Source: a bacterium
Lineage (GTDB): Bacteria > Patescibacteriota > Microgenomatia > UBA10105 > UBA927
Direction of reading: 5' to 3'
DNA length: 64,000 nt
Assembly: GCA_021817785.1 (NCBI GenBank)
Contig: JAKAFY010000005.1
Span: forward strand, 553 to 64,552
This document shows, in pieces, positions 11,624-58,000 of this stretch. Under the pieces are notes generated by a model that saw only the letters and a program-made list of their open reading frames with translations, was not told the DNA's origin and ran no database searches. Each line of letters starts with the position of its first letter. The first letter of the stretch is position 1. The position numbers were made by a program, and so were the translations under genes.

Positions 11624-12229
11624 ATGGCAAAACCGATTGTCGTAGGATTTGATTTCGACGGAGTCGTGGCATATAACCCGGCGCGGCTTGCGCGGTACCC
11701 CATATCGTTTATCAAGCAGAACATACTGGGCATACACACGGTTTCTTTTTTTATTCCAAAAAACGGTATCGAGCGCGCCTTTTGGTCGCTGGCCCATGAG
11801 TCCAGTATGTTTCCTGCTTTGGGAGTCACGCATTTGCGGCATCTTGTATCTGAGGGCGTCATAGAGGCCCATTTGCTGACTTCCAGATTTGGATTTCTGG
11901 AGCCGAATCTTCGGAGATTTCTGCGTTTTTGGAACTTATCCAATGTATTTACCTCGGTAACGCTCAATACCCGCGAAGAACAACCGCATCTGTTTAAAGA
12001 ACGGATTATCCGGGCTAAGAAATTTGAATACTTCGTAGAAGATAATTGGGATATCGTATCCCATCTTGCCGCTAACCTGCCTCGCCGGCAGAAGGGGACC
12101 CGGTTAACGACGGTCCACTGGATCTACAACATATTTGACCGGAATCAGCCGTATCCTCATAAATATCCGTATCTGGAAAAATCACTGGAGCATATCGTGA
12201 CGGGCCGTACAATCAAAGCGACGCCGTAG
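11624..12229 (+). CDS. HAD-superfamily hydrolase-like protein
   Basis: An ATG at 11624 gives MAKPIVVGFDFDGVVAYNP, which is HAD motif I (DxDG[VT]). The track ORF begins at 11549 in the same frame. Confidence 0.5.
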   Translation: MAKPIVVGFDFDGVVAYNPARLARYPISFIKQNILGIHTVSFFIPKNGIERAFWSLAHESSMFPALGVTHLRHLVSEGVIEAHLLTSRFGFLEPNLRRFLRFWNLSNVFTSVTLNTREEQPHLFKERIIRAKKFEYFVEDNWDIVSHLAANLPRRQKGTRLTTVHWIYNIFDRNQPYPHKYPYLEKSLEHIVTGRTIKATP

Positions 12230-17583: not shown

Positions 17584-17586
17584 ACG

Positions 17587-25581: not shown

Positions 25582-25678
25582 GTAGGAAGACCAGAGCTTA
25601 GGAAGACCAGAGCTTAGGAAGACCAGAGCTTAGGAAGACCAGAGCTTAGGAAGACCCAGGGTATCGTAAAAGGTCGGG
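25582..25678. repeat. 16-nt tandem repeat (ttaggaagaccagagc) x ~5.7
   Basis: Perfect head-to-tail copies at 25582, 25598, 25614, 25630 and 25646, with a degenerate sixth copy. They start 10 nt after the rho stop. Confidence 0.9.
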
Positions 25679-26920: not shown

Positions 26921-27044
26921 TTTTTTGGTATAATTCCATAGTTGGGCCTGTAGCCCTGCCCGCAATGCTTCGCATAGCGATGCAGGCGGGTTAGTTGATA
27001 TATAGGTTCATACCTACTGTATTTGTGTTGATGAAGAAATTGTT

Positions 27045-27117
27045 GGGCCTGTAGCTTAGTTGGTAGAGCGCCGCATTCGCATTGCGGAGATCAGCGGTTC
27101 GACTCCGCTCAGGTCCA
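27045..27117 (+). tRNA. tRNA-Ala (anticodon CGC)
   Basis: Canonical cloverleaf folded by hand. Acceptor GGGCCUG/CAGGUCC with the G3:U70 Ala identity pair; anticodon loop UUCGCAU; T-loop UUCGACU. CCA is not encoded. Confidence 0.85.
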
Positions 27118-27187
27118 CAACATAATTTTTAATTTTAAATTTACAATTTTCAATGAAAATTAAAAAGTGAAAATTTCAAATTTAATG

Positions 27188-27517: not shown

Positions 27518-28070
27518 AAAACCAGTTTGTCTAAATTTTTTTGTTTTGTCAATCCCTCAGTTTTTTTGACAGCAGAATACGGGTAATTTATTTCGCCAAT
27601 TATCCCGGGATGGGGGAAGGGTAAGGAATTCTTTACTGAAACAAAAACGTATAGGAAATGCGAATCAGGGATTTTGATGATATAGTTAGCATATGTTTGA
27701 AATGGTCATAAAAACACGTGTTTATGCGCACTTTTTAAAAAATAAAGAACCGATTGCTGAGCTGTACTGATATAGTCGGGGATAGTTGTGAAAACCGCTC
27801 CTTGACAGTGCTTACTAGATATCATCATAGTAATAATACTGCACCTGATGTATGGGGGTTTGGGGACACCGGGTGATTTGTCTTTGAGGCGTGTACTTAT
27901 CTACGATAAACAAAGCAAAGAATACAGTCAATACCCCTGCTTGCCCGCAAGACATTGAACTATCCTCTCATTTGTATCACTTCTTTATAGATCGATATAC
28001 AAATAAATTTCACAACCGTATCGAATCCACTGAAAACGGTTTCGCACAAATCCTGCCGCTCATCCTGCTT

Positions 28071-34000: not shown

Positions 34001-37000
34001 GCGGCTTGCCCGCGAACAGGCAGATGCTGCCCAGATACATCTTCGTACACTCGAACAGACAAATGCTTCCCCGGAGGTGCGCGCTATTGCACAGGAAGCG
34101 CTGCGTTTGGCAACCGAACGGCTGTCTGCGGCTGAAGACGTCGCAACGCATATCCAAAATCCTGCTGACATTGCGTTATACAGAACAGAACGCGCCAATG
34201 CCTTGAGCACATTACAAGCACGGGCAGAAACAATACAGGGAGAAATGACGCTGTTAGCCGCAGGACAGAAGGCGGCACAAACGTTTGGCGGCAGGCTGGC
34301 GATCGCAGTACTGGGTCTTCCTGATCAGCCGACCCCGTTTGCGGAATTGATTGGCAGAACTCCCGAGCAGATCGTACAAGCCCGGACCACGGCGATTACT
34401 GAAGTAGGCAAGCGGTCGCTTTCCAATATCGAAGATCTTGTTAATGAAACGATTGATGTGATGCGCGCTTCCAGTGATGGGACGATAACGCGGGAACGGG
34501 CGATAGAAATCGCCATGGATGAATTGTCTGCTACTGATGCGAAAGGAAATACAAAGATCTATACTGATGCGCTCGCTCAGGCCAAGGAAGCATTAATGAA
34601 GCAGGGGATCACCAATGAAACAACCCTTGCCCGGGAATCCATGCGCATAGCCAGAACTGTTGCGGATCAGTTTGTCGCAAACAATGAGGCTATCCGCGCC
34701 GCACTGGCAAAAGGAGAAAGCCCTGATGTCGCGTTTGCCATCAGGCAGAGTACGGCGAGTAAAGTATCGACTGCGATCGTAAATTTTATAGAACAAAATA
34801 CCGTCGGCCGCATAAAGGTATACCAGATCCGTCAGGAAAATAAGGCCATGCTCTCCCAGCTTCGGGTTGCGCTCAAAGCCGAATACAAACCTTTGGTAGA
34901 AAAATTGGCAAATATCAATAATGACCGGGGTGGCATATCACTGTCGCAGGAAACCAAACCCGGCGCGAATGATGCATTGATCGCTTATGATACGCATAAA
35001 AGTGTAAAGCCCGGAAAATTAGTCGTCGATGACATCAAACTGACGGATACCGGAAGAAAAGCAGGACTGACCGAAAAGGATGTCACCTTCCTCAAAGATA
35101 ACCTTCAATCGATCCAGGGCGTTCAGGGATATACCGCCCATACGGAGCAAGTGGATTATATCCTGGCGTTTTTGGAATCTCTGGGAGACGGAAACGCCCG
35201 CCGTATATACGGCGCCGTCATGGGACTCGGGAAAACCGATTTCGTCATGCCGGCAACCACATTACTTCAGGCACAACTATCGGATCAGACGCAGGTGATC
35301 GTATTTCCGGAAGACAAACTCATGAACCAATACCTGGGCGGGAACTCACAAAAAATGCTGGATTTGTTTAAAGCAAAAATTGATCCCAAGGGGGAGGGGT
35401 TGGTGCTGGTGGTAGATCCGTCCAAGCCGCCGTCCGCTGAAGCCATCGCCAAGGCAAAAGTGATCATTACCACGCGTGATATCGCGTTTCTTCTGGATGC
35501 AACCGATGCATCAGGGCTTGCGATGCGCGCCAAATGGCGCGGGGCGTTTATCCAGTCGGATGAGGGACACTGGACGCTCAATGCGACGGAAAGCTTCCGG
35601 ACGAGTTTTGGAAAACAAACACAGATCATGCAGACGGATTCCGGTAAGATGAAACGCGTAGCCATAGCCAGTGTCGAACAATTACAAAGCGTCAGAGAAC
35701 TGATTGATCTTGCGAAAACGGGAAAACTGACGGACGCCGAGGTCAGGCGGAACGCGGATAAAACAGGAAGTTTTACGGACCCGACTGAGCAGGAAATTCT
35801 CCGTGAGTGGTTGCAGAAGAAAAAGAACGCAGGGCAGCTGCCCCCAGCCTTAGAGGCGGCATTGCAGGCGGGTTCCGTTGCGGATATGCGGGCAAAGATA
35901 ACGGAATTTTTTGATACCAACGCGTCTGCCCGCACCGGTCCGTTGGGAGCGGAGATTTCTGTAATCGGCAAGCTTGCAGATTTGTTTGCTGCAACCCCCA
36001 AGGTAGAGTATGGGGCTGCGTCGTTTGATAGAAACGGTACGTTGGTTGATATGATTGCGCCGCTGGATATGACAAAGGCAACCGGCCGCATGTACCAGGG
36101 GGAATTGGAACAATTACTGTACAACACCATCGGCGCGGAGATCGTCGGAAAGAATATAGATCTCACTAATCTTGTGTCAAATAGCCAAAGCCGGGACATA
36201 AACTTCGGGCTGCTTATGTTGGAAGCCAGCGGGTTTGCTATCTACACCGGTACTCCGGAGCTTATAGCGCCTTTGTATAAAAGTGCATATGGCATTGATC
36301 TGACGCAGTATGGATTAAACGCACATGAGGTGGTAACCAAACAAATAAATACGGGACTGGCGTCACAACAATCTCAGGTGTTTCAATCAACCGACGATGC
36401 ACTGACAAACAGACTCCATAAAGGAGAGCCGGTCGCAATAGTAAATCTCCGTGATACGCTCTACCGCACGAATGAATCCGCGTTTGAGACGATACAGCGT
36501 CATCTCGATACGGGTGATCGGCTGTATGTTGCGAAAGCCGCCGGGGGATTTGAAGAATATGTCCGTCTTGCGGATGGCTCTATGCAGAGGGTAGCAGTGT
36601 ATACGGATAAAACCGGGATAAATGCGAGTATCGCTAACCATATAACAGAGCCGATTGTCGTAATGTATGAATTCGGGGCACATACGGGTGTAGACGTGAG
36701 TCTGCCCGACAATACTCGGGAACTGGTGTTGACGGACACGAACTCCCGCATCAATGAAACCGTGTTTGATCAGGGGGTCAAACGCGTACGTCCGGATACT
36801 GCGTTAGTTGATGTCGTGCATGTGGGTGGAGACGGGACAATTGAGTCGGTGTATAGACAGTTAGATGTTCAACAACGGCAGGACATGGCGCTTGCGGAAG
36901 TGCAATTTAAAGAGACGCTGCTTCGCAATTCCGTCGATCAATTATTGTCCCGCTTGAATGCCGTACAAACGACAACTGCAGGCGGTATCACCCAGGGAGT

Positions 37001-40000
37001 GGATTATGCGGCACGTCTGAAAGCGCTGCAAGATCAATGGCAGGTAACGAAAGATCTTTCCTACGATTTGTCGACGCATAATATATCCGCACAAGATAAA
37101 TTACAGCGAACACTGGATCAAGTGAAGTCGATGTATGGGGAAATCTACGCGTCCATACAAAGCGACGTAACACTACGTGCCGCTTTTGCCGTATCCGCCG
37201 GGGATACAAAAGATCTTGCAATTAATTTACAACCGGATCCGAAAGGAGTGCATAAGCTTTCAGCGGTGTCGTCGCTTGCGGATGTGGTAACGTATATCAA
37301 CAAAAGTACCGACCCCAAGGTTATTGCCGATGCGGGGGTGACGTTCACCGAACGGGGGCCGTCTGCTGAAGCGGTGACGGCAGATGCACGCAATGTGCAG
37401 CCGACCAACATCATCGCAGATGGCGACGCAATAACTGCTGAAACGATAGCCGCGGAAAACCAAGCCCGTCAGGATGCGTTGGCTAAAAATTCCGGCAACG
37501 GAAATAATCCGACGTTGCCGGGCTCCGGCCCACAGACCCCCGGCGGTAGCGGCCCTGTACAGCCCGGTGGTGCGGGAGGTGGGCCGGCAAATAATGGTGG
37601 CGGTGGTACGACAAACACTGGCGGTGGGGGCGGGACAACACAATCAAACGGTGGTGGTTCCACACAAAATACCGGCTCAGTCAATACTGGTTCGAATACA
37701 ACCGGTCCGACGACCGTGTCGCAGATGACGTCGCAAGCACGGCAGGCAGTCATACGCGCTGCTGTAGACACATCGGGTACACAACCCGTGGTGCGTGCAG
37801 GTATTTCTCCGCAGCAAACGCTTCAAGCACTCGCTGCTGCAACGATTGAGGCGCAAAATCTTCGGAATAATCCATTTTCCCGCATACGAATATTACCGAT
37901 TGCCCGAACACTTGAGAGGCAGGAACAAGCGGAACTTGCCTTGGCGGATGCGCTTCAAGGGCCGGTACAAGCGGCGATTGAACAGGAACTTGGGGTAACA
38001 CTTTCGGGAAGCGGATTGCCCGCCATCGCGTCTGCCCGGGATAGTGCCGTAAGTTATTTGGCGGCGCTTGCTATAGGAGATGCTGATGTCGCGCAATCCC
38101 ATCTGACCGATTTAAACAAAGCAATTGAAAATGTGGCTGCAGCACAAGGGTCGGCATATACAGGGAGGCAAACTGCGGACATAGCGCCGCATATTGTTGC
38201 TGCATTTCTGCCGCCATCTGCAGTGACAGCGAAACCCATAATTCAAACCATATCAGGGCAAATCAATACGAATACGGTATCAAATCCGTCGACATGGAGA
38301 GCCACCATAGGAATTATGTGGTCGGGGATCAAACACTACGGCTTTAACCCGAATCCATTAACGCTGTTTACGATATTCGGCAGCACAACAAATCGCTGGG
38401 ATGTATTGGGACAGGTGGGGGGGTGGATAATGTTCCGTATCGCCCCGCTCTTTGTACCCGGTGGTCAGTTTGTCGCCGTACCGCTTTTGGCGTATGACGG
38501 TGTCCGATTGATAACTTATCCGTTCCGTGCGTTGGCCCGATTTATATTCACGCGTCCGATGATTCGGGATATTGTAATTGGGAAGTCCGTCGCCCAATTA
38601 GCACTCCGATGGCATCTGAATCAGACAATGCTCAATATTTTGGCGGGGAGCCGGAACGGATTTTTTGAAAGCTATGTCAACGCCGTTCCCGGTTGGCCGA
38701 AAGGGACGACATTTTTCAAGGGATTGATTGGGACATTTACGTGGGCGAGTCGTTTTCAGGCAATGTGGGGATACGATGCATTCCGGTTATTGCGGCGGTA
38801 TACGCAGCAGATCAATCATATCGCTGATACCGATATGCCACTTCACCAACTGCCGGTGACCCAGCCGAATTATTGGGACACAAACGGATTCCTACTGGGG
38901 TTTGTCCCCCGGGCACTGGTGAATGCAACCCCACGGAATAATCTTTTTGGATATTTATTGACCCGATGGCTCGTACCCATCGTTATCACGTCTCTTGTAG
39001 CGCCTCTATTAATGTTGATACCGGTCGTAGGTCCGTACATTGCCGTCATGGTGGTTGCCATCATTATTTCCATGCCGCATTCATATGATTCCCATAGGTT
39101 GTGGCATGAGGGAGGATGGCAACATGCCGATATCTGGAATACAAAAAAAGGTCATATTACTCCATGGGCATCGTGGGGCGCGACCGTGACGATTACCGTG
39201 CCCGCGCCGCAACAGTTTTCGAAGGGAGTATTGGAAGCAGGACACACGTTGGTTCGCGGGGCAACGATAACGGTTACCCGTCGGGACGGAAGCGTGGAAA
39301 CCGCAATACTGGATACCGTATCCAATGATCGTATCGCAGCAAATAATTCCTGGACCATCCGGTCTGCTGCAGATAATTCCGTCATTGGCTGGGTAACACA
39401 AGGAGATATTACGGTAAATATGTCACCCGCCATAGCATCACAGCCCGTTGTCCCAATACCGTCAGGAGGTCTGAGCGCTGCTGATATCGACGCATTTGCG
39501 GAAGCGCTCACGGGTCCACAGGTTCAAACCTTGTTCCAGCGTGAAATCGCATTTCTCCCGTTAGGCTGTTCGGAGTGTACTGATTTCGTAAAACAGAGCA
39601 TAAATACACATCTTGCTGCTGCGCAGCAAAAGATTGTGGCTGGAGATCTGGCGGGTGCGATTGCTCAACTGGATCAAGCGCTTCATGAGATAGATATGCA
39701 TGTCAAAAATCACACCGGCGGTCCGGTAAATACGATGCTCTTTAATCTGGTGCGCTATGTTATATTGCGTCACCAGGCTGCGTTGTATACCGCTCTCGGT
39801 GATACAAAACATGCAGCCGATGTCATGGCAATAGCCCGTTCGTACCGCGTAAAAGCGCTTATTGAAATAGATACTAAAATCCATGCGTATAACGCAGGAG
39901 ATACGCGGTTTGAAGCGATCAATGACGCACTTTCGTACTATACCGCGCAACGGGAAAAAGATTTCAGTGACATTCTTTTGATGCAGGACGCAAACCAAGC

Positions 40001-43000
40001 TCAGCAAGCGCTTGATGATCTGACGGCGGAGATTTCAAACAGACCGACGAACCCGACCTTGTGGGATCGTGTTACGGCCATGGCTGCGCGGATTCTTGTC
40101 AAACAGCCGGATCCGCTTGCCGGATATGCCACTGAAATTGCGAATGCAAACGCACATATAGCTGCTCGTCGAAATCCTCCGGTACGTCACGAAGCCAGAG
40201 TGGGGGATACGTATCGGTTTGCCCCGAGCGCGTACCCAGCAAACGTCAACGCATTAACGGGTGCTTCCATCGGAGGAGACACGACAAGTAAAATTTTGAT
40301 TCCGGGCCTGGGTCTCGGACTCTATGCATCCTTTGACAATGGCCGTTGGCAATTACATCACCAAGATCGTTTTAAATCGGGCGTCTTTATAAATACAACA
40401 CCGGTCCCTGTAAATAAGCAAGGGCCATTATCCTCTGGTGATACGATCGTCATCGGGGACGTGCGGCTTGTGGTGACTATAGATAGCGACAATAGCCTGA
40501 TGATTCATATCGAACAGCTTGTTTCCGGCCAGCCGGCGCAACACCCGGTTGTTCATAAAAATGACACACAGCATTTTGCCGCAAACGATTTTACAACACC
40601 CGACCAGGTTGTGACGCTGGGAATCAATATCTACTCGACAATCCGGTTTGATCCTGGTCAGGCACCAAGTATCCAACCGCATCATGCGCATGTCTTCAGA
40701 AATTCCGGTTCATGGATTATTACATCTGCGGATACACAGGCTACCGGCACTATCCGACGACCTGATGGTTCTGAATATCCATTACAAGGTCTCACGGGAT
40801 TGCATGACGGCGACATCCTATACCTTGGAAGCGACGTCGTCATAACGGTGAACGTTGACCCGACAACTCATGACCTCACCTTACTTGAAACGACCATAGG
40901 CGATAGCGTCGAGGTGGCACGGAATAAGACAGAAGCGCGTGCGAAGCTTCAGGCGATTATTGATCTTGGAAAGAATCCTGCAGGCTACGACAACGCGAAA
41001 TTATCAGCGTATGTTTCCGATCTGCAGACGGTTGCCGATGGGCTTGCACAGGCGGATCAGGCCGTATTTGGCACAAATACCACCGCATTATCCGGACAGT
41101 TGCATCAGGCGGCGCTTGAGCTCGGGCAGCTTGTCGTCGGGTATCATACACGCGTGTACAACAACAACGCTCCGTTCTTTGATTTTAGCCGGGTGCAGCA
41201 GATGGAAGATGATGTGAATACCATTCCGGAGCTTACGAAGGAAGAAAAAGCGCAGGTGTGGGACGGTTTCGAAAAGACGGTGTATCGGGATTATATCGGA
41301 TCGGTGTACGGCTCGATTGCCGGGATGGAAACCGAAATGTATGGTTCTTCACACTCGCTCCCGCCGTCGGACCTCGATAGCATGTCTCTGGCGGATTTAC
41401 AGAGAGAAAAAACAATGGCGGAAGGGACTTTTGCGGTGACAAACGACGCATATAAAGAATTTTTACGGGATAAGAATCGTTTTGAAACGAATCGGAAAGC
41501 GATACAGGCAAAAGCCCGGGCAATGGCGGACGCAATGAACACGGCGTTTGCTAAAGGTCAGATGACGAAAAATATTCGTGTAGAAGTAAGCCAGGAAGGA
41601 ATAATTCAACTTATTCCAGCTGATAATAGCCCGCTATTAAGTCTTCGAATTGGACTAGACACTCCGCAGGAATATATATCAGATCAAAGAGATGATGGGG
41701 CGGTTCATATAATTTTAGGGACAACCGGATTATCGGTGGCACCAGCAATACTCAATATTGAGTCAAGAAATGTGGGGTCTGGTGTCGGAAATGAAGCGTT
41801 GTCGATCATAGAAACGGTTGTTAAACGTGCAGGATTCGGTGGGATGTTGGTGCAGGGGAATACATCAGTATTGTCGTTTGGTTTTTGGTCAACAAACGAA
41901 TATTGGGTGGCGGATACAAAGCAAAATTTGGATGAGTTGCAACGGTATAGCCGTGCACGTCAAATGTACAAAATATTCGGTAAAGCATTACCGAAGCCAA
42001 CACAAGAAGTATCACGACGTGAGCAGATTAATCGATTACAGGCACAAATCTTTGGATGGTTGGCGCTGGCTCGTAGTATTAATATGTCATCCGACGAATT
42101 ACGTACGAGCATGTCTCCGGATGATTTACAAAAGTTGGTAATTGGAAAGACCAATATCTATATCGCGGGAGCGCTGGTTCCCGACGGTCTGCCGTTGGCA
42201 TGGCAGGAGCCGATTATTCTAGCGCTCACCGATCTTGAAGCCGGCGTGCCGCCGCTGGGCATGTACGATACCTCTGTACGCGTCCTGAACCGTCCGGAGG
42301 TCCATAATGCGCTCATCCAGCTTATTGGAGCAATCAAAGCCCAAACCGATGGCGGCGGCGAATATCTGAAAGCACTTGGGGAGGCAATCGTTGCCGGCGC
42401 CAACAATCCGAAAGAGATGGCAAAATTGCTGAATAACCTTACTTCGTATTGGACTACCCCTGCGAAAATACTGAAAGACTCGTCGTTGCCCGGGCGGCAG
42501 CAATTTATCGACACCTATGGGCCCGTCATCGCCAAAGGCGAGTCAGGCAATCAGTTTGCGGATGCGCTCTATACACATTACAGTGCATTGAAAAGCGAAG
42601 AGCAGGATGCTCTCGCGGCGTTATTCGCGGATGATGGAACAATGCGTACGCCGGTTGCGCACGCAATACAAACGCTGAAGCCATCGTATGCCCAAAAACG
42701 AAGGGAAGATAGCCTGACGGTGGCTGCGCGCGACGCGTTGTTGCCGGAGATCAAAACGCTTCATGCGTTCACCTTTCTGTCCGACGATGAAATAAAGAAC
42801 GAGATACCGACGGACATCACGAATCAGGTGGTCGAGGGTGCGTACGTCATGGATACGAACGTGAGCGGGGAGTTAAGCGCGCTTGCGCCGCAGCAGCAGG
42901 CTGTGGTGCGCAACGGTTTCGATGTGCGCGCGGATATCGTACGCGACGCGTGGGCAAAAAGCGATATCAGCCCGTTCGGCGCACTTTTTGATACGAATGT

Positions 43001-46000
43001 GCTGTTTAGCTCCTTGGTGTCGCAAATAGCCGATCTGCACGAGGCAGATGCCGTCAGTCAGTTCCGTGCGGCACTGTCTGCATTCCCATCGGATTTGTAC
43101 GCATCGATGAGGGCACGGGATACCGTGAATAAACCGGATGCGTATCAAATACAAGCTGAAATACATGCGAAGTACGTCGCCGCGACAATACGGGGGAAAA
43201 TAAGTAGTTCGTTCCCGATGCAAGAGCAAAGATTGTTGGCGTTTTTGAACAACGGATTACTTGAAAACAACAATCATCCCCCGTTCCCCAATTTGGAATC
43301 GTTATTGAAGTATCTGCTGATCGGTGACGTGCCGTCGGATCAACAATTCGACGAAGCGTCATTACGGGAGCGCGTTGCCTCCATGGATACCGGAGTGACG
43401 GGCCCGCTTATGGATACGCTTGCCAAAGCGATACAACAGATGCTTCCTCTTCTTGACGGGATTGTTGCCCGTTCCGAGCCGCTGCCCGCCGTAAATATAG
43501 CGCCGGGTACGACCACCACGACGCATGTCGCGTTGCTCCGTGCGATGCATGACTATAACGACAATGCGCCGCGTTCGATGCGGTTTACGCCGGCATCCGA
43601 TTTTACCCTCCGGCCGATAGAAGATCAGGTGAACGAGTTTCTGACGTTTGTCGAAAACCGCACAGGTCAGTGGACGCGTCAAACCTCCCCACGGGAGGGG
43701 AAAGTGGGGGTAGCAAATACGTTTAATGGAATGACGTTCGCTGAAGGGAAGGCCCCGTTAATCATCGGCACGAGTAAATCGAATACGATTTGGTTTGATT
43801 CAGCCGTCGCAAAATCGGTAGCAGAGAAGCACGCGGAGATATATTTGGAACTTCATTCGGATAGTCCAAACAAGCTTTGGATTCGGGCTGTAAGCGACAC
43901 TACCCCGATTACCATTTTCGATCATCGTGGTGAGAAACTACGGACTCAATCTGGTGCTGTACTCGGAGATGGATATACGATACAACTCGGATCAGACGTT
44001 GTACTTTCCGTAAAATATGACAATTATTCATATCAGTTCACTCTCACCCCGACGAAAGTAGGGGAGGCGATTACTGCGGATGCCCTTGACCAACTGCTTG
44101 CCAAATTGATCCCCGGGTATGACACGCAGAAGCTGCCGCCGGAACAGGTTACGGCGATCCGTAAGGCCGTCTACGGCTTGGTACCGGCAGGAGCCGCAGC
44201 AGAAAGCCTGGATGCCGCGCTCAAACAGCCCGCGGTGCAGGAATTCTTAACCACACTGCAGACGAATATCAATGCGCTGACCAAAGCGCAGCTTCCCAAT
44301 GTGCAGGCGATTATCGGTAATGTCCAGACGGACTATCAGACCGTCCTTGCCCGTCTACCGATATTTATCCGAGTGTTGGGGTCTGTAAATATTGCGGATG
44401 TGAACAATGTGACTATTGCACTGACTTCTATGAACGCTGCCATACAGGTTGCGGAAACAAATCCACAATTATCTGCTTTAGCGGTGGCATCGTCGGACCG
44501 GAACAGTTTTGTGGAGGATCAATCGGTCATAAATTTGCTTCGGGGAATCATTTTGAATGCCTTTGGTACCCACGCTATCATCGTTTCAGAGCTATCTCCG
44601 GATACGTATAGCTCTCTTGTTACCTCGCTAGGGGAATATGTTTGGTCACTTGCGGTTAAAACGCCATCTCTTGATGGATTTTGGGATGCTGATAGAGGTG
44701 CAATCCTTATACAAAAAGCATTAGACGAAAAAGATAATCGGACACCAGTATTACCGGAATTTGTTGAGCTCACCAATCAGGCAGTTGGATCAGATAAAGT
44801 GCTTTATATGGAAGTATATGCGGAAGAAATTTTGACGAATCGCGAAATTTTGTATTTTTTGGATTTGGCACGAACCAGAATCCTCGCACAGCAACAAAAA
44901 TTAGAAAAGTATAACGCAGATTGGAGACGCCTACAGCTTGCCGCAGAGCAGGATCCAGCTATCAAAATTGGCAAAGAATTAGAAAAATTATATCCGTTAG
45001 AGTCGAACGCTCTCATGATGCAGTCAGCGGGTGGATCACTTCAGCTTGACGAAGCCAATAGGGCTATTTCGTATATCACCGGCGTACCGATTGAAGAGGT
45101 GCAAAAAGGGAATTACCCAAAGGGTACAAAGCCGGATTTGACGCCGGAGGTGATACGTTCACGGCTCGTTGCTCACGGCGATTATGATCATGTTTTGAGT
45201 GAAACTGAAATAGGAAGACTGATGATAGCCGAGGATGAGAAAGATCATTACGATATCATGCGTACCCGTACACCGAGGTTTGCGCCGGTTGGCGGTACAT
45301 TAGATCAAAATCCGCTGGTAAATTTGCTGTTTGGACTCACCGGCAAACGGTACCGTATCCCCGCGGATAATGCGGCACTGACGGAGGAGGATGTCGTCGT
45401 CGCATTCGAGCGGAATTACGATTTTCTCGTGCAGGATTACGCTCTTCCGACACTCATTTCATCAAGTGGAAAGCCGGATGTATATTTCAATGCGCTGATG
45501 GTGGTCGCGCAAGAGAACGGAGTAGAAGTAAAACTTGTTTCCGACCCCTCGAATCCTCAACCGCAGGCCCGGGGTCTGTTCCATGGCACGCCAACAAATA
45601 AAACGATCTATATTCCGACATTGGATAGTAATTCCAACAGGGAATTAGCGCATGAATTGGTCCATGCGCTGCAGTTTATTAAACATCCCGGCATGTCCAG
45701 ACTCATGCGCGAATTTGAGGCATATCTGATATCGGATTATCCGAAAAATAGAGTACCAAAAGTCGGATATCTGAGGAAATTTTTGCAGATTATTGCGGAC
45801 ACTGTCGGTCCAACATATGTTGCCGTAGGACAGCCGATTCCGTGGGAATTTCAGCCGGTTGATGTTTCCAATAGTGCACCGGAGGGATCGGATATATCGA
45901 CGCCAGTTGCTCTTGACCAACTACTTGCAAAGCTGATTCCGGGGTATGACAAACTGAAGAAAGATCAACAGACTGCGGTTCGGAAAACGATATATGGGCT

Positions 46001-49000
46001 CGTTCCGGGAATTAGTTTTGGAGAAAACATAGATGATGCATTGCAGCAACCCGCGGTGCAGGAATTCTTAACCACGCTGCAGACAAATATAGGCGCATTG
46101 ACCAAAGCACAGCTTCCGAACGTGCAGGAGATCATCGGCAATGTCCAGACGGACTATCAGACCGTCCTTGCCCGTCTGCCGATTTACGCCCTGGTAATGA
46201 GTTCGGCGAATGTGACGGATGTCCCGAAAGCCCTTATTGCGGCACAGAAAGCGATCGATGAAGTCGAGCATAGCCCACATCTTTCCGTTGGAGCGCAAAC
46301 CGCGGCGAGCGCCAGCGTGTTTACAGACGATATGAAATTTTCAGTGACGGAGAATGTAATGCGTGCATCTCTTGGATCTCAAGGGTATACGGGGACAGCA
46401 GAAGATATTGCATTGATACATCAGCAGTATGGTATCTCAGACGACGAGTTGAATACGCTGATAACCGCTTTGTGGACGTATGTATGGAATAGAGAGAGTC
46501 GAGAAATCCAAATTCGTGATCAGTTGAATAGCATCCTTTCGGATGCCAGTCCGGAATTTAAGGCATTACCTGAATTTGAACGCGACGACATTATCGAAGC
46601 ACTGCGTATTTCTTACCCCGATAATACAACACTTGCCGCGGTCGCGACTGATTTTTCCGAATCCGGCAAACGGGCGAAAGAGTTGCATGCGTTAGTGACC
46701 TTGTTGGCACAAAAGACGTCGATAAACGATTATGTGTTAACCAGTATTATGTTGCATACGCCTCAAAATCCGGAAACATGGAGCACGTTGTACGATACAT
46801 CGATAAAGGTCAGCGCACTCCTAGAACAGGTTTCGGAATCCAATAGACAGGACCAGTCGAAACAAGCGTATCAAGTATTATTGCAGGCGATCAAATTGAT
46901 CGGGAATGATCAGACAGTCTGGTCAGTGATGCAGCGTGAAGCCGATCGTTTTATAAACGTCATCGCTATTTTAGCTGCAAAGCGTTCGGGGGGCATTACT
47001 CCCAAAGATGCACAAGCGCTGTATACTGCTCTGCGTATTCCGGTCGCGCAAAAAACGAAATATGATGGTTTATTAAATAAATCGGATTTGTCAGTACTGG
47101 GCGCTCCTGAAGCGGATTCGAAGTGGGCGGCATTTGATGCATTAGCGGTTGTGTACTTCCGCAAGGTTCCCGAAGCTCCATCCGAAGACCCACGTGTGCA
47201 GGAAATTCGCGGGCTATATGGAAGATTTGTACGATCATTATCGACGGTGCAGGGAGTGTACGTGATAAAAATGTCCAGTGAATGGGCAGCTGTTTTAAGT
47301 CTTTTGAAAGGCGGGTCTATTGTTTATGTTCCGAACGGAGCGTTGGATACAAAGTTTGAGCCGAAGGCTGTTGTCGATGCCGCAACGTTCCAATCCGGAA
47401 TTCGTGAAGCGGTGGATTACATGAATTTTCCTTCCAAAGAAGCGTATGCGAGAGCAAAAATAACCGTATGGATATTGGACAAAATGTTGTCCGTGGAGCA
47501 GTATTATGCGTCGAAGAATACGTTGAGTGTGCTGCAACAAAAAAGCGGAGAACTTGGCCAGATTGATCAACAAATAAGTGCGTTGTTGCGGACCGATCTT
47601 AGCTCTGGCACGACGCAGGAATCTTTGCAGCAGATATATGCCGCCTTGTACGCACTTCTGCCGGCAGATAGTGGTTTTCCGGCCGATGATACGAGTGAAA
47701 TAGACGCATTAATAAGCAGCATAAATACTTTTGGACAACCGAAAGAAGTCCGTCAGGTTGTCACTCATCTTGCGACAACATTCGGCATTCCGGATGAACA
47801 GATCAAACAGGTTGTCGATCAGGTGGTGGCTAATCTTAAGGATTCCACGGCTGCCGGTACGGTTCCGGCCTGGAAAGCGATAGAGGATGCGCTGAATGCA
47901 AAGCCGAAGTTTGCGAAAGACGTTTTACCGCTTATAAAGAATCAATTCGCAGCGCTTCAGAAGGCGCAAGCGGACGTATCCCGAATACAGGCGTTACTCA
48001 CTATCTACGCCCGGACGCTCATCTCCATCCCGCTCGGGAAGATAGCTGAAGCGCCAACGGTCTTATCGCAGGAACAGAAAGCGATTGCAGCGCTGGAAGA
48101 ATCAAGTTCCGGGTGGGTGTCGGATGCGACGACTATCGATGAATTCCTCGCGGACAATACACGTACCGGTACCACCAACGAAGTCCGCATTCAAACAGGC
48201 CTCAAAGATACCAAGATTCTCCAGCCGAAAGATGACAAAACCCCGAATGCGTTCGGCATAAGTCTCACAAATTACACGCGTATCGTTTCCGATATAGGGC
48301 AGTATTTGTGGAAGAAGGGGGAGGATGTCCGCACGAAAGCGATTCTTGCGATGGTAGAACCATATGATGCCCAGCGCGATGCGTCATACATCTCACGAAT
48401 CGAACAAGCGGCAAAAACGAACGGATTGCAGATTAAAGTAGTTGGATATATAGCAAAAGGAGCGCAAGGATATGTTTATTTAGTGCAACTATTAAATGCA
48501 AAACAAGTCAACATACCCGAATATGTAGCAGCTAAAGCCGACGATTTGGCACAAAAGCTAGGTGTAAATGATGCGCCGCATGAGTATGAGCTTGCCGGAA
48601 AATTACGGCAGGCAGAACAAACCGGCGAATTCGACATCAGCGACCCCTCGAAATTATATACAGTTGATCCATATGCAGTTGACGCAAAGAATAAAGTGCT
48701 ATTTGAGGAGCTGGTTCTAACGCAAAAATGGGATGATGAAAGTCAAGACGCGAAGATTTCCCGCGCAATGCAATTTGGTCATCGTACGTATTTAGTTCGT
48801 CAAGCTGGTTTCTATAATCAGGATAAGATCGGTGATTATCTGGCGGATATTAACAATAAACTTCATTTCTTTGATTCATCTTCGTATGGTACAAATCCGA
48901 AACTAGCGTTAGATGCAAATAGCCGGTTTATTACGCGCATTGTTGAAGCGCTCTATCCCGCCTCCGGTGCGACCGTAGAAAACATTTTTAGCGCACAATT

Positions 49001-52000
49001 CACAAATGATACCAATAGGTTAAATGTATTGTTGCAATCCCGACTTTTTGTTTCTCTACCGAAGATTATTCAGTACAACATACTTCTATTACTCGGAAAA
49101 ATATCAAGCAACTCGGGTCAGAATCTAAATAGTGCCGCAGCATTTAAAGAATTATTACTGGACATGCTTTCAGTTACGGCGAATAACCACATAGACAGTA
49201 AATTCATACCTGCTGAGTTGCATGGTGAATATCAGCAACAAGCGATCATTCACCGATTTTCTCGATTCGATAATGAAAATATTCTTGGTATGGCTGGAAT
49301 CACGATTGAGCAGGGGGCAAATGCGGAAGATAAATTATTAATATCGAATATCGTTCAAAGCCCTTCGCTTAATTTGATCTATTCATGGCATGATTTTAAT
49401 GTTGGAGTACCATACGAAAAATATTATGCTGGAATATTTATCAATCTGACGACACAAGAAAAAATAGATCACATTATTGGACTTGATCTTTCGCAATTTG
49501 ATCTGTCTCCAGAGGATTATGCTGTCATGCGCGTCATCCAATGGCACGCACAATATGTGAGGTATGGGTTTATGATGACTGGTCATCCTGATGTGAATAA
49601 TGCTTCAGCGATGAATCCATCGGAAAGCGCAGTGGCGCAACAACTCCGCACGTACGGCGTCATTAAAGTTCTTAAAAAGATGGGATCTCGAATGGAATTA
49701 GAGGCTGCACAAGGCCACCAACAGGCGGTTGATAAAGAATTATTGCCCTCCATGCGGGCATTCCAGGATGCCTTCGTTCAAAATATTTTTGGAGGGGATA
49801 AGCGCAAATTGAATAAACAGGATTTTCCGCTTACGCCCGAGCAGGTGAAGAAGGATATCGATAGTTATGTGCCAAACACAGCCAATACCGTTTCTACCCA
49901 ACTTACCGCGCTTATTTCCGATGCCACGCCGCTTAAAACCGATGAGCAGAAGGCGCAGATCAAAGCCGTGGTGGATGCGACTCTTGCCGAAATGGATGCC
50001 GTCACATTGCCCCAGGATATCTCGGCCCTGAAACCGGCAATCAGTGTGATCTACGGCGACGGCACGTCTTTGGTTCAACTTCCGGATTTCCTGAAACGCT
50101 TGCCGGTATTCATCCGTGAGCTTGTAGCAGCAACTCCTAAAGAGATGGAAAAATTATTGATCGGAACCAATACTGCAGTCACCGCGATGAAAAATTTTCC
50201 GATTGGTTTTAATAACCCGGCCGGAACGACAGAGGATGCATTCGTCAAAGACGTAAAGAATCGAACGTTTGTCCGGGATATGCTGGTAGACGGACATCTG
50301 TATCCTGCAAATTATTCCGGCATACCGATTACAGATGCCATTATTGAGCAAATACATACAGATTATGGCCTCACATCAACAGAATTCGACGGCGTTGTAA
50401 CGGCGATTCTTCACTATCTCTACACACCGACGGAGGAGGGTGGAACGGAAAGTATTCTTGGCGCGTCGCTTATTAGTCAATTTGGTATTACGGCTGATGC
50501 GGATAAACAAGCTGTTCAGAACTCTTTACGTGATGGCCTTACCGGCGTGACGCTTTCCGGGCCATTGGTTACTGCACTTTCGGATCCAAAGAGTGCGCCG
50601 TCTCAATTTACCGGAACAGTTATCAAAGAGCTTCGTGCAGACGGCGCCACAGCCCCGGCTATATCACGCATTTTGCCCACGATATTGTGGGTCTACGATC
50701 ATGCGGCCGCCGACAAAAAGCCGCTCGTGGCAACTACCCTGATCCCAAAAATTAATGAGGTTGATGCCGCAAACGCGATTATGTGGAAAACGTTTGTGGA
50801 TGGAAACGCAACCGAGCAGTATTTCATTGATACAGGAAGTGTTGTGGTAGGTACGTCCTTTGACACGGTTCTATCTTCGTTATTGCCCGATCAGGCGGCA
50901 GATGCACACTCAAAAGTGGTAAACGCCTATTTGCGGTACGCTCGGATCAAACACGGATCACGGGTGACGACGGAATTACAGTCATTTTTGGGTTATGTAA
51001 CACAACCGGAACATGTCCCGATGCCGCCCACCGCTCCCCAGGTATTTAAAGATATGCAAAAAACGGTGGAGGAATCCCCGTCACAAACAACAGCATATGA
51101 AGTGCAGGCAATAAACCAGCTTGCTTCGTTATACCGGACTGACCTGACGGTGAAGCGTACAGGTGGCGCGGAGGGGAAAGCACCTATGGTAGAAGTAAAC
51201 GGGAAGGAGCTTCTTCCGATTGCCGGACATATGTATCGGTACATTTATAAGCTTGATGATACACATGTGTTGAAGTTTGATATGGGAGGGCAAAATGAGA
51301 GTGAATTGGAACTAGAGGCACTAAATGATAATGTCCGGGCCGTATCCCCGATACTCGGATGGGGGATTGCATCGGATGGTTCGGTATTTCTTATAGAAGA
51401 ATATAGCGATGTCGTGATAAGTCAGTCTGACAATACCCAGCTTCGTGGTGATATACAGGGAATTATTGAATTATGGAATAGTGCGTACGTGAACAGTTCC
51501 GTAGCAGAACAGCAGGCCTTTTTGCATGAATATGGATTGCAAAGCGCAGATGAAATCAATCAGCTCGAGCAGATTGTGAAGGTAGACGAACAGATACATC
51601 TTGATGATTTTGCCATGGCTTCCCAAAATAAGCCTGAATCCGGGCAAATCGGACGCGGGCGGATAAGCCATAGATTGCAGCTCATAGATTTCGGACAAAA
51701 TAGCGTTCGGTCAGGCTATGCTCCCTATCTGCGGAGCTTCACCCATCTCCAGGAGATAGTGGACAAAATTGTAGCGGACAGAAAATCCGGCTCCGTCGGC
51801 GGGGAGGTCTCTGCGTTGGCGACACAGGCGTGGGATGCAAAAAACGAAGCGTGGGTAGATGCTGCCATAGAAGCTCTATCGCATGAAGGGTTTACCGACT
51901 GGAACGGGCTTCTTGTCTCATATTTTAGAGCGTATCGTGGTCCCAAAGATGAAATGCTGACTCCAAAACAGGTGGAGGATGCAGTAAATCATTACGAGCC

Positions 52001-55000
52001 TACATTTTTAATCTCCATACTCCTGAAGGCGGATCGAAATCAGGAAGTGGTTGACCCGCTATTTGCCGATCTAACGCGACAGATACGACTCTTACTCCCG
52101 TTTGATAAAGAGCCTGATGTACAACTTGCTACCATGCGCATGGTTCTTACGATTCTTCATGGAATCAAAGCCGGGGCGTTTCCGGCAGAGACGCTTGTGC
52201 GGTTTATCGGTGAAGCGGACGCCAATGTAAGTGGCGCATTCCGTGTGTTTGCATCATCCATCAAACAGCCTTCCGTACAGAACGTATTCATGCAGATGTC
52301 TGATGTAGTGGATGAGGCAAGTTCATTCCAGGATGAAATCACCATGCAAATGGCCATGTTATTTGAAATTGTTCGGTCAGGGGATATAGCGCATCTGCCC
52401 AAAGTGGCCACTACATTGCCCTCTGTATTGCAAAAATATCAGACGCGCACAGCAGGAGTGCCCATCGGTGATAACGCAGTAGGCTATGGCGCTGCCATGA
52501 CAAAAATACACACCCAGTTTGGACCAGATACTTTGAGGATGCGGGATGCGTCGCTTGAAATCATGCTCGTTCAAACCAATGAAAAGAAAGAGCGATTGGA
52601 AAACATTATCGATGACATGATCCGCGAATTGGGAGTACAGTCGAATAACCCATCGCAGCGGAAGCGGTATCAGCAGTTGTTCGTGAATATTTTGAGTTTT
52701 ATGTCGAGAAGTGATCAGCGAGCTACAAACCGTTTGAGCGCGAAAATAGCGCACGAAGTTGAGTTGCTTGACCATGCGTTAAACGATACAGTCGAGTCGC
52801 AAAAGATACTTGCGGAGATCGCAGTAGATGCGAAACCATTGCTTCCAACATTGTTTGCTACTCCTGCAGGAAGATCAGAAGTACGGGAAGCAGTGATACA
52901 ACAAACGGTTGATACAGTATTGCGCCGAAGGCTTCCGCTTGCCGCGTCGGATGATGAGGCAACGAAAAAAAATCCAACATATCCCCGATATACATCTGCG
53001 TTGAGAGAGTGGCACAACGCCGCATTGTTGTATATAGAGCATCAACATGGGGCTCCATCAGAAGCTATCGCAGTGCTACATGCGTTTCGGGATGCGGCGC
53101 ATGCAAATATCACAAATCCTCGGGATCGAGCACTTCGATTGATTCGGGAAGCGTATACAAAACGAAATAGTGACCCGGTCATATCTAGTGCCTTGACGCC
53201 GAAAGAACAGGATTTGTTGTTTGGTCATTATCTTTATTATTTATTTAACCAACAGGATCGTATCGCACAGTTCCCGACACTCGATAACGTAATAGGCAGA
53301 GATAATCTGGCGTTTGTGGGGAGTGTACGGAGAGATGATACTACCCAAGCAAACGCATTGGCTGCCAAACTCAAAACATCGCCTCTATTGTTGCAGCTTG
53401 ATAAAGATTTGGGCCCGATCGTCGCGGAATTGCAGGCAATAAAAAGTGCCGACACGACGTCGATATATGCCAACATAAAGTTTGGAATGGAGCAGCACTT
53501 TTCCATGACGGAGCGGTATGACCTCATTGTAAACCTGCTTGATTCGGATCAAGCGATATTTGATACGGCGATCAAATGGTTTACCGATAAAGGATTTGCT
53601 CATGTGAAGGAAGATTTCGGGACATGGGATGGCGGTGGAAGTAGTACGACAAACGCATCAGGTCATTTGGCACAGAATGCTGCTCCGGCGGCAAATGATA
53701 TCAACGCGCAAATTGCGAAGTTTGTGGGTGATATACAGGCCGCAGGGTACCCCGCAAACTATCCCGTGGTACTAAATGGAGTAGTACAGGATAAGTCCGT
53801 TGTTTTGAAGATTGATGTTTCTCGATTACAAGCTCAGCTAGAAAAGATAAGTACGGCGGCCAATCAAAGCTTTGATATTACGATTTCGTTAGGGAATGCT
53901 GAGGTGCTATTTGGAAGTATTGCTCGGTCAGGCGGCGTTACACGAATCAATCCCTACGATCGAAGTGGCGCGCGTACGATATCAAATGTAAGATTCGTGC
54001 TCCGACAACATATACAGTCTTTAGATCTTGCTCTTCGTGATAAGGCGAATGTGGATTTAGCTGTACTCAATAAGGTTTTATACGGTTTTCTTAGTAGTCA
54101 GACCGGCCCGACGGTGACGTTGACGCAGGACCAAGTTCTCCAGCTTATCGATGCCATGCGAAGCGAAATGAATCTTCAGGATGTGCCGGGACCTGTTAAA
54201 TTCGCCCTCGGAGCAGTCGGAATAAACGACAAAAGCATGGCGGCGATGACGATTGAGCCGAAGTTTTCAAACGGTATATGGAGTGTCGCAATACAGTTGG
54301 CAAAATTTAGCTTTACCGCTGAAATTCATACGAGCCAGACATCCGATCAGGGGTTTGAGATAGCGGGCTTACCCGGCGCGCTCACGCGTTTTGTGACGCC
54401 GGCAGAGATGATGCGAAGCATAAACAAACGACTGGCCAGGCACGGCGTTTCACGTCCCATTTCAAAACTTGATATTCAAAAGGATGGGAGTATCGTCGCC
54501 ACGTTTGAAGGGCAACAATCACAGATCCCTCGAGCACAGGGACAAGTACGGACCGGATTTGCCATATCGCTTGGCGTGGCTGCAGCGTATATCCTCAAAA
54601 TTCCGGTTGTGTTGACGGCGGCACACGCGGTACAGTCCATACTTATCGCTGCTGGGCATATCACTATTCCGATTTATTCATGGTTCCCGGATATGCAGCA
54701 TCAGATTTCCGCACTGTTCCAACCAGTGACGCTCCAATACGCTCTTTCTCTCGTAGGTATATCGGGAGCACGACCAGCTCCGTCGAAGGTTCCTGACATA
54801 CTCTCCGGTCCGACGCATACGATGTCTATGGCGGATAAACGCCAGATGCTTTCGCTTATCCCGCAGGGATTCCTCCAGGCGATCGTGACGCAGGTGTTGC
54901 GGAAACCGGGAGCGACATTTGCCAATTTCCGTGCCACGGTAGATCGGTATCGCTTTGTGACCGTGATGTTTGATGACCATCGCCCTGGGTTTGCCGCGTT

Positions 55001-58000
55001 GCAGCAGAACGTTGCCAAAGGAAAAATCGATGCTGCGGTGCTTCGGCAGTTCCGTATGATTTTGACGGAGCGCATCCTGAATGCCTTTATGGCGCATACC
55101 GGCAATATGATGATGACGCCAAAGACACCGTTGTATCAGTACGTGTTTATTTCAATGGCACAAAATCGTTCGACATTTTTACGGTCACTTCGGGAGTTTA
55201 TCGAAAGTAATGCCGCGGGAGAGGTGATCCAGCAGACGCTGAGAGAATATAAGCTCGATGGAATACTTCCGTACCGCAGGACCGGCGATTATCTTGGATT
55301 TTTCGTCGGCGGTGATCCTACGCAACCGCTCGTTCTTGAGAATGTCGACGGTAAACTTGTACAACATACACCATCGAGCCCTGATATTTCGGATACGGTG
55401 AATGCGGCACCTCTCGGAGTAGAAATCGAACAGGCAATTTCTATGGATCCAATCACTCTTCGGGCGTGGCAGGATACGGATTCATTGCCGATTTATATCG
55501 TAAATGCGCCGCAGGGACCAGGCGTCGTATCGGTCATATCAGATAAAAAAGGCGGCATTCCGATCTCCGTACGGCCGCTTGCCGTACAGGATATCATCGG
55601 ACCAGACGAACCAGCCCCCATAGTAACCGTAGCATCATTAACCGGGGATGAGATAGCCACGTTAAGTTCCCTTGCTCCGGATACGTATATCACACTTACG
55701 GATCTTGGCGCACATTTATCGCGGGCCGACCTGGATCGTATGGCCCGTGGGGAAACGATATATCTCCATGGCGCTTTGCACTCAGTCGTCCAGATGTCCC
55801 AGGAGATGAAAGAAGAAGGAGGGGTAGTCCATCAGGTTACCGCCGTGGATCTATCGCCGTTTAGTCTCATAAGTAAAGTGTTAAGTAATCTCCCGGATGC
55901 GGTGAACCTTCAGTCCGGATTCCAGGATGTATTGTCGTACTGGTACAAGCTGGTTGTTGCAGAATTTCGGAGTGTGGGACTTCATGCAGGACTCTTTGGT
56001 GGGGATGGTATGCAGGCGATCGGTAAACTTGATTCGCTTGACCAGTTGGTCGCGTATATGGATTTTGAGAAGTTGTTTGAGCAGGCACTTCGTGACGCAA
56101 AAGACGGCAAGATTTCTCCAAACGCTGCGGCCGCGGCGGCGGTGATTTTGGATCCGAAAAACGGTATCGCCGGTAACATCCTTGTGAAGGTCGGCTTCGT
56201 CCAAACTGAGGGAACACTGCGGATACTGCAAGGCAGTACGGAGTTTATTTTTGATGAAAACCCCGACGATATTTTGGCGACGAGGAAAAAGTTCCAGCCA
56301 GTGGCAGGGGAGAGCTACGACTCGATCGTCGCGCTGAATGCAGCGGCAGCAAAAGATATACAGGAGCGCTTTGGTAACAAATTTGCTTCCCGTGGATTAA
56401 AGATCATCCAGCAGGGGCAGAATTATTTCCTGGTGCGTCAGAAAGAAGCACAAAAAATAACAGTAAGTGAGACGCCCGTGGTTATCCCGCAACGACATGC
56501 TTCGTGGTGGCAACGAATTATGGATCAGGGGAGGCGTGTGATTGGAGGCGTGTGGAATTTCATAAAGACGGAAGCGCTTCGTTTTGCGGTAAGTAGTGAA
56601 AAGGGAAGATTGGTGATATCCGTACCGGGATCATCGAAGCTTCCGAAGGGGTTTGAGAATCTGAAAACGGTGGAAAATCGAATACATCAGACTGCCCCGG
56701 CGTCGTATCGCGCAACGATTGATGCACATTGGACGGAAATCATGACAGCGATTTTTAGCGAGGAAAAACGCTATAGAAACGGGGATGACAGGGGACTAAT
56801 AAACGCCATCAAAAATGCGTTATGGAAATTTACCGATAGCAAAGACGACACAGAAACAGTACAGTTTTTGGCGAATGTCGTACAGGATTACCGTGGTCAG
56901 ACCGTCGGATCATCACAAACACAAACAAAACAATCAGCGCCCCAAGCTGTCAAAGCACAGCCGCAAGCTTCTACGACGTTGGCTAAGCCAATCGTGACGA
57001 TAAGGAATATCGGGCGTAAATATATGCCCAATAAACTTGCGGGTAAATACCATCACGATAATCAGGACGCTGTTCCCGAGAGCGTTAAATGGCATGGAAA
57101 TTTATTTCAACTAGCGGCAGACGGCGTGACACGTGACGAAAACGGGGGCATATCCAAAGAGAGTGGTGTGATTGCATCACAGGCTGTGCGATGGCTTCAT
57201 AATGAGTTGCTCTATCTTTCCGACTCCACGGCAAATATCTTCGCAAAAATTAAACGAGTGCTTGATGACGCGAATGCAAACATGTTGTATAGACCGGCTG
57301 GTGCGCTTGCAACGGTCGCATTTACGTATGTCGATAGCTCTAATGGCGCTGTGTACGGCGCACAGGTGGGGGACGCCACGTCGTATGCCATATCGCTCGA
57401 CACCAATGAAATATATCTTCTGACGGATACGAAAGTCCTCAAAAAGGGAAAGCCGTATGACGGACAGCGCGTGTATTCAGTCTTAAAAGACGGTCAAACA
57501 CTGTCATCGGTACAAGGAGATGAAGTTGAGTCGGCATTTGGCGATAATTCTGTTCTAACAAGCATCCGGAAGAATACATTGCCTTTTGGCAAATATGTCA
57601 TCATTACCGGTTCGGATCAGGTAACGAAACTTCTGGAGCCCTATCTGGTGAAGCGATCTGTTCCGAATAGCGACCTTCAGCGTTTTGAGGCGACGGGAAA
57701 GCTCAAAGATGAGCTCTATTCATTCCTTCGAATATTACCGGGAGCCAAAAAAACAATTCTGGATATATTGAGCGAATTCCAGGACGCAACCGGCTCGCAA
57801 GATGACCTAAGTGTGACGGCTGATGAAGTAGAGATACGCATGCCGTCTGCTTCGTCTACTCTGCGTTATGGTTTTGATGTACAGATGCCGCAGCTTCAGG
57901 AAGCGTATCCAGAAACGGTGAAATGGTGGAAGGATCGGATAGCCGCAGTTCGGAATTTTGTATCCCACGCCTGGAACACCTGGGGCTACTCGCCGCGGGT

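Follow-up and report, generated by a model that had tools for sequence, protein, structure and literature searches.

An old intragenic duplication with a locally homogenised core, most likely a trace of gene conversion, in a giant gene of the Gottesmanbacteria lineage

The stretch of bacterial DNA analysed here (the window: 64,000 nucleotides (nt) of contig JAKAFY010000005.1 from assembly GCA_021817785.1, positions 553 to 64,552) is dominated in its right-hand part by a single giant open reading frame (ORF) that runs off the end of the window. Two segments located at 44082-44366 and 45909-46190 lie in one frame of this ORF (27888 to beyond 63998), and they encode the peptide that an earlier note on this DNA had quoted when it described a recent internal duplication; the positions, the common frame and the encoded peptide were all borne out by our analysis. 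Both segments are parts of a larger protein module that is present in four copies, c1 to c4 (Table 1). The c1/c2 duplication is old; within it, the DNA of about 140 bp traces back to a later common origin, although not to a recent one. As set out below, this core of the module was most likely homogenised by intragenic gene conversion.

A chance similarity of c1 and c2 is excluded. Residues 5401-5587 of the ORF align with residues 6010-6201 at 50% identity in a BLASTP comparison (E = 2e-53), and a global alignment of the two copies yields 55% identity over a unit of approximately 200 amino acids (aa). The duplicated unit (ORF aa 5396-5588 and 6004-6205) is thus considerably longer than the module of about 94 aa that had been proposed. 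At the DNA level, the two segments share 207 of 279 positions (74%), with nine gap columns, and not the approximately 90% given in the earlier note; their identity is a mosaic in which the first 42 nt agree at 83%, the middle 96 nt at 52%, and the last 138 nt at 88%, so that only this last part comes near the earlier figure. The longest exact runs common to c1 and c2 measure 26 and 38 nt. The spacings between the two copies, 1827 and 1821 nt, are both multiples of three. Significant, collinear and in-frame similarity within one ORF, which defines an intragenic paralogous domain repeat, is therefore present in the c1/c2 pair. A self-comparison of the DNA, as the earlier note had suggested, was run on positions 27888-64000 and recovered this pair as the sole sizeable direct repeat (201 nt, 79% identity, spacing 1821 nt); all other direct repeats in this region were 20-25 nt long and at chance level.

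The age of the duplication can be read from the silent sites. We compared the codons at those residues that are identical in c1 and c2, and derived the expectation under saturation from the codon usage of the giant gene itself. Everywhere outside the core, the same codon is used at 20 of 58 such residues, against 20.1 expected; this holds for the region of block 1 (aa 5396-5412; it contains ALDQLLAKLIPGYD) with 7 of 15 (5.4 expected), for the middle of the module with 5 of 16 (5.8 expected), and for its tail with 8 of 27 (9.0 expected). In the 48-codon core (aa 5446-5493 versus 6053-6100), by contrast, 31 of 44 residues are encoded by the same codon where 15.8 would be expected, an excess with P = 5e-6 by simulation. 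Fisher tests set the core apart both from the rest of the module (P = 6e-4) and from the reliably aligned N-terminal part alone (P = 0.009), and the longest run of identical codons extends over 12 positions (permutation P = 0.005). Synonymous (dS) and non-synonymous (dN) divergence estimated according to Nei and Gojobori (NG86) give the same picture: dS is 0.70 and dN 0.05 in the core, with an overall estimate of about 0.6-0.7 for core dS, while dS is undefined, that is saturated, in the N-terminal part and reaches 3.5 in the tail. The earlier statement that silent differences dominate is roughly right, as the first 96 aligned codons contain 32 synonymous codon differences and 21 replacements. 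Since the silent sites are saturated over most of the module, the duplication of c1 and c2 is old.

Block 1 provides an internal control for the behavior of the core. All 14 of its residues are identical between c1 and c2, yet its silent sites are randomised; in this gene, conservation of the amino acid sequence alone consequently does not preserve silent sites, and block 1 represents protein-level selection without homogenisation of the DNA. What distinguishes the core is a local excess of silent-site identity relative to its homologous flanks, a pattern expected of a gene-conversion tract.

A profile built from c1 and c2 detected two additional copies of the module, c3 and c4, and the limits of all four copies were set after one iteration; c1 and c2 form the closest pair of this family. 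In the central part of the protein, the four copies follow each other at start-to-start distances of 609, 597 and 710 residues (c1-c2, c2-c3 and c3-c4). When compared with one another, the spacers of 400-500 aa between them proved dissimilar, so that a tandem repeat unit of about 600 aa could not be demonstrated and was set aside as an explanation. The AlphaFold2 model of c2, for which the input alignment consisted of the four copies only, is all-alpha with 12 helices (predicted local distance difference test (pLDDT) 82.6, predicted template-modelling score (pTM) 0.82; the five models span 54 to 83), and the core falls on the helices modelled with the highest confidence. Searched against the PDB with Foldseek, this model returned nothing below E = 0.7, and the module profile had no match among PDB sequences. 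The repeat marks out a new domain of about 200 aa that is predicted to be all-alpha, and for which there are four copies, a confident model and no matching PDB fold. Its arrangement between unrelated inserts suggests that c1 to c4 may serve as scaffold or binding domains. In c3 and c4, the region corresponding to the core is the least conserved part of the module and contains indels, so a constraint acting on the family as a whole does not explain the identity of the core between c1 and c2.

These data lend themselves to the following scenario, which we regard as the probable one. An ancestral module would have been duplicated long ago within the ORF to give c1 and c2. Thereafter, about 140 bp (46-48 codons) of c1 and c2 would have undergone short-tract gene conversion within the gene (ectopic conversion), once or repeatedly, and purifying selection would subsequently have acted on the core peptide (dN about 0.05, dS about 0.6-0.7). 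The randomised silent sites of block 1, taken together with the weak conservation of the core in c3 and c4, favour conversion over simple purifying selection, and we consider conversion the most likely cause of the excess of silent identity in the core. RecA-type recombination requires roughly 25-30 nt of identity in Escherichia coli, and the exact runs of 26 and 38 nt in the core reach this range. The mismatches in the core are of an ordinary kind (15 transitions and six transversions), with adenines evenly placed between the copies. Read in this way, the repeat shows intragenic recombination acting within a giant gene of a bacterium from the Candidate Phyla Radiation (CPR).

Several points weigh against gene conversion. 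Conversion is classically tested by asking whether, within the tract only, the paralogues of one genome resemble each other more than their orthologues in a sister species; no orthologue of the region from another species was found among GTDB species genomes and JGI metagenome contigs, nor among 5.8 billion protein clusters and 1.84 billion representative proteins. The core has only 48 codons, which leaves wide errors on all estimates; and the arrangement of c1, spacer and c2 rests on contig-level agreement. Furthermore, a stable hairpin is located at the 3' end of the core in both copies, and its two stem differences are compensatory. Given this hairpin, a constraint on the core at the nucleotide level is an alternative to conversion, albeit one that we judge to be unlikely.

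According to this alternative, the old duplication was not followed by any conversion, and the silent sites of the core would have been kept alike by a nucleic-acid constraint, for example on a hairpin of the mRNA or DNA, on a binding site or on a signal for pausing that both copies contain. The hairpin of 54 nt (44311-44364 and 46132-46185) has predicted energies of -17.7 and -18.2 kcal/mol and z-scores of -3.45 and -3.19 in c1 and c2, respectively, and none of 200 shuffled sequences folds as well; its two stem differences are not only compensatory but also synonymous, and together they make up a single change from U-A to C-G. Yet the hairpin ranks only among the top 3-6% when all 54-nt windows of the gene are considered (top 2-4% when corrected for GC content), and the single compensatory pair was found post hoc, with an estimated chance probability of roughly 0.03-0.15. 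Moreover, the hairpin includes neither the 26-nt run nor the 5' half of the core, and the 144-nt core as a whole is not unusually structured in the second copy (z = +0.6). An RNA structure extending over the entire core was rejected on account of this last value and of the unexceptional standing of the hairpin among windows of the gene. An overlapping gene was likewise rejected, as there is no ORF in another frame that is open across both cores.

One might also imagine that the core is kept on purpose. The protein would then require two copies of one helical surface of 46 residues, for instance so as to hold a pair of identical partners; a switch would be provided by recombination between c1 and c2; and the end of a contig inside c2, described below, would reflect a real structural polymorphism. 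We assign little credence to this proposal. If it were true, recombination between the in-frame cores, which are 1821 nt apart, would delete or duplicate a cassette that carries an HExxH motif, and would thereby generate strain-level variation of modules in a host-interaction protein.

It is very improbable that a module of about 285 bp was duplicated recently and that its divergent middle and tail are the outcome of rapid later divergence. The high DNA identity of the core and its exact runs of 26 and 38 nt would fit such a history. Against it, residues that c1 and c2 have in common show complete randomisation of their silent sites in the N-terminal part, in the middle and in the tail, and rapid divergence of a protein cannot randomise synonymous sites at residues that have not changed. 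In addition, dS is saturated outside the core and amounts to about 0.6-0.7 even within it, and the unit comprises about 200 aa rather than 94. Low synonymous divergence across the whole unit, as a recent duplication would leave behind, is thus not what we find. Of the earlier description as a recent internal duplication, the duplication of a protein module stands, but its recency has to be given up, with silent sites outside the core at saturation and those within it well diverged.

An assembly artefact, in which a mis-joined or chimeric repeat had created copies or a 1.8-kb spacer that do not exist, is even harder to sustain. It could draw on contig JAKBZM010000004.1 of the same strain (GCA_021842445.1), which matches the window along 21 kb at 100% identity and ends at about position 45928, 20 nt into c2; its end there may be fortuitous or may mark a structural variant between strains at the boundary of the module. 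An identity of 74% overall and a longest exact match of 38 nt, which is below the usual final assembly k-mers and below read lengths, speak against an artefact, as do the reading frame that stays open through both copies and the spacer, and the diverged copies c3 and c4, which cannot come from mis-assembly. A separate ENA contig of 22.2 kb carries the same gene (protein P0001, covering aa 4657-10125 at 99.98% identity) and differs by one internal K/N exchange, hence by a strain difference; it reproduces the protein sequence of c1, spacer and c2 exactly. The gene is also uninterrupted on a 73.6-kb ENA contig that encodes a product of 13,064 aa, a length that cannot be checked against the window. 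The warning that this span is an assembly hazard was therefore overstated. P0001 was the only strong match when 1.84 billion representative proteins were scanned in full with HMMER. At the limits of its call (window positions 41853 and 58262), P0001 starts with Met where the window has Gln (CAG), and it stops at aa 10125 although the ORF of the window continues; the ENA assembly and the window hence disagree at each end of this call, be it because of a variant, because of a frameshift or because of a chimera.

Diversity-generating retroelements (DGRs) are common in CPR bacteria, and two repeats of about 140 bp that are approximately 88% identical and lie a few kb apart in a possible CPR surface protein recall their template and variable repeats, but this reading was rejected as practically out of the question, since Pfam reveals no reverse transcriptase in the window, where it was applied to the giant gene and to upstream ORFs of at least 150 aa, the mismatches are symmetric and transition-rich (15 of 21) instead of adenine-specific (A differs seven times in each copy), and the two coding, in-frame copies differ in the core mostly at synonymous sites.

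Table 1. Features of the giant open reading frame in the window (ORF aa, residue numbers of the ORF)
Feature	Position (nt)	Strand	Remarks
Giant ORF	27891..64000	+	runs off window; open from 27888; >12,037 codons
FHA-like segment	43758..44072	+	ORF aa 5291-5395; directly upstream of c1; Pfam FHA 20.9 bits, cut-off 20.7
Module copy c1	44073..44651	+	ORF aa 5396-5588
Block 1 (ALDQLLAKLIPGYD) in c1	44082..44123	+	partner 45909-45950 in c2; 14/14 residues identical, silent sites randomised
Homogenised core in c1	44226..44363	+	codons 5447-5492 (tested block 5446-5493); 88% DNA identity to partner in c2; holds the 26- and 38-nt exact runs
HExxH module 1	45414..45884	+	ORF aa 5843-5999; HELVHALQ at nt 45651; in c1-c2 spacer; putative small zincin
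Module copy c2	45897..46502	+	ORF aa 6004-6205; 55% identical to c1
Homogenised core in c2	46047..46184	+	codons 6054-6099; partner of 44226-44363; spacing 1821 nt, frame kept
Module copy c3	47688..48323	+	ORF aa 6601-6812; 24% identical to c2
Module copy c4	49818..50432	+	ORF aa 7311-7515; 27% identical to c2
HExxH module 2	60420..60938	+	ORF aa 10845-11017; HELIHAIQ at nt 60693; 25% identical to module 1

The first of two modules with an HExxH motif is located in the c1-c2 spacer. The position that had been assigned to the second copy, right after HExxH module 1, was confirmed: HELVH is found at nt 45651, and the copy begins at about 45897. The motifs at 45651-45665 and 60693-60707 are the only two of their kind in the 12,037 aa of protein within the window. 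Both modules share the pattern HEL-x-HA-x-Q ... P-G-x-S ... E-x-EAY with protein P0003 (143 aa, 35% identity), and the three of them may constitute an undescribed small zincin family. A profile of the HExxH alignment found nothing among PDB sequences, nor was there a Pfam match, and the AlphaFold2 model of the module is unreliable (pLDDT 42). Judged from the motif, peptidase activity of the HExxH module is putative.

The segment in front of c1 resembles FHA domains. It is 31% identical to aa 4242-4341 (nt 40611-40910), and a second marginal FHA match is located at about aa 4152-4190 (window 40350-40470). The Pfam scores for PF00498, 20.9 and 22.7 bits, are marginal with respect to the gathering threshold of 20.7, and scanning the protein in pieces of 5000 aa did not bring up this family.

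Relatives of the module region were sought with an 810-aa region and with the four-copy alignment as queries, in protein collections, genome contigs, metagenome contigs, and 1.84 billion representative proteins. Matches were limited to P0001, which is the gene itself, P0002, P0003 and L086. P0002 is a spurious match to a repeat protein, and L086 a doubtful match of 33% identity on a contig with GC-rich-looking translations. One homologue search missed P0001 even though it is present in the collection searched, and where very long proteins are concerned, the negatives of this search therefore count for little. Neither the module profile nor the HExxH profile gave a match in the searched parts of 85 loci, which extend over roughly 2,700 N-terminal aa of the related giant ORFs.

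On public contigs, the giant gene is called from an ATG codon at 28071, giving a product of 13,064 aa (39 kb). The true start is probably the GTG codon at 27891, because similarity to relatives begins at aa 4-23 of the ORF. The window is chromosomal, with 23S and 5S rRNA genes at its start followed by housekeeping genes; the giant gene is closely preceded by rho, a LysM-M23 peptidase gene and two tRNA-Ala genes. Its Rho protein is 60-86% identical to those of the closest metagenome-assembled genomes, most of which are labelled Candidatus Gottesmanbacteria or Patescibacteria. In at least 15 of these loci, a giant ORF follows rho (and the M23 peptidase gene) and runs off the fetched region, and in most of them the N-terminal approximately 2,000 aa of this ORF are 27-32% identical to ours. 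Judged from these comparisons, the giant gene is one that evolves fast but keeps its position next to rho in the Gottesmanbacteria lineage.

Three further observations were made in the DNA that precedes the giant gene. Just downstream of rho, a 16-nt tandem repeat (CAGAGCTTAGGAAGAC) is present at about 25585-25655, where the window and ENA contig L001 differ by 32 nt, corresponding to two units. On the minus strand (15799-19323), two adjacent ORFs of 594 and 578 aa that lack a Pfam match stand beside an amine-oxidase-like gene. At 26944-27118, ARAGORN reports a 'tmRNA' that overlaps tRNA-Ala(CGC); Rfam shows only the tRNA, and the tmRNA is probably false.

With respect to its domain content, the giant protein is sparsely annotated. 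Pfam searches of more than 12,000 aa returned only marginal matches to FHA and S-adenosylmethionine (SAM)-dependent methyltransferase families, and aa 5001-10000 had no match among PDB sequences. The weak SAM-dependent methyltransferase matches lie at about 63400-63700 of the window (ORF aa ~11,840-11,940), all of them below the Pfam cut-offs. Crude hydropathy peaks occur at aa 55-73, 3690-3728 and 8891-8909. They suggest membrane segments which, if real, would place c1 to c4 outside of the cell and the methyltransferase-like end inside. The recognisable internal repeats, namely the four helical modules, the two HExxH modules and at least two FHA-like segments, make up an estimated tenth of the protein, and the 36 kb of the gene within the window contain a single sizeable DNA repeat; recent repeat expansion therefore does not explain the size of the gene. 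The idea that repeats drove the growth of this giant gene is thus weakly supported: repeats do exist, but they account for only a small part of the protein and are separated by dissimilar spacers.

Taken by itself, the repeat is an ordinary domain duplication with local homogenisation. The more notable object for the biology of CPR episymbionts is the gene, which would occupy about 4% of a roughly 1-Mb genome and is nearly free of Pfam matches. Our literature searches for giant genes in Gottesmanbacteria found none.

Giant genes have been described from Omnitrophota and other bacteria (West-Roberts et al., 2023; bioRxiv 10.1101/2023.11.21.568195), and HEAT, TPR and dockerin domains were reported for the encoded proteins; Gottesmanbacteria giant genes are not mentioned in the searched portions of that text. 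The protein studied here has in common with them a length of more than 10,000 aa, an origin in an uncultivated bacterium, several hydrophobic segments and long unannotated stretches, and a role in cell-cell interaction is possible for it as well. It differs, in a comparison made by description and not by sequence, in lacking HEAT, TPR and dockerin domains, and in that its host belongs to the CPR and has a genome of about 1 Mb, as judged from relatives with contigs of 1.0-1.2 Mb. Within the protein, the c1-c2 spacer resembles HExxH zincin metallopeptidases of the minimal gluzincin-like type, as HELVHALQ is followed by P-G-M-S and E-F-E-A-Y, but it differs from these enzymes in having no match to Pfam or to PDB sequences.

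The closest parallels to the c1/c2 pair are the Rib/alpha-C repeats of streptococci and the Ig-like repeats of giant adhesins, which undergo concerted evolution by intragenic recombination or gene conversion. As in those proteins, paralogous domains reside in one ORF, their DNA is more similar than protein-level selection would require, and their in-frame spacing would allow recombination to keep the reading frame. Those repeats are arranged in tandem, are numerous and are near-identical over whole units, whereas in the giant gene the copies number four and are scattered, with unrelated stretches of 400-500 aa in between; just c1 and c2 are involved, with 46-48 homogenised codons that have themselves diverged to a dS of about 0.6-0.7.

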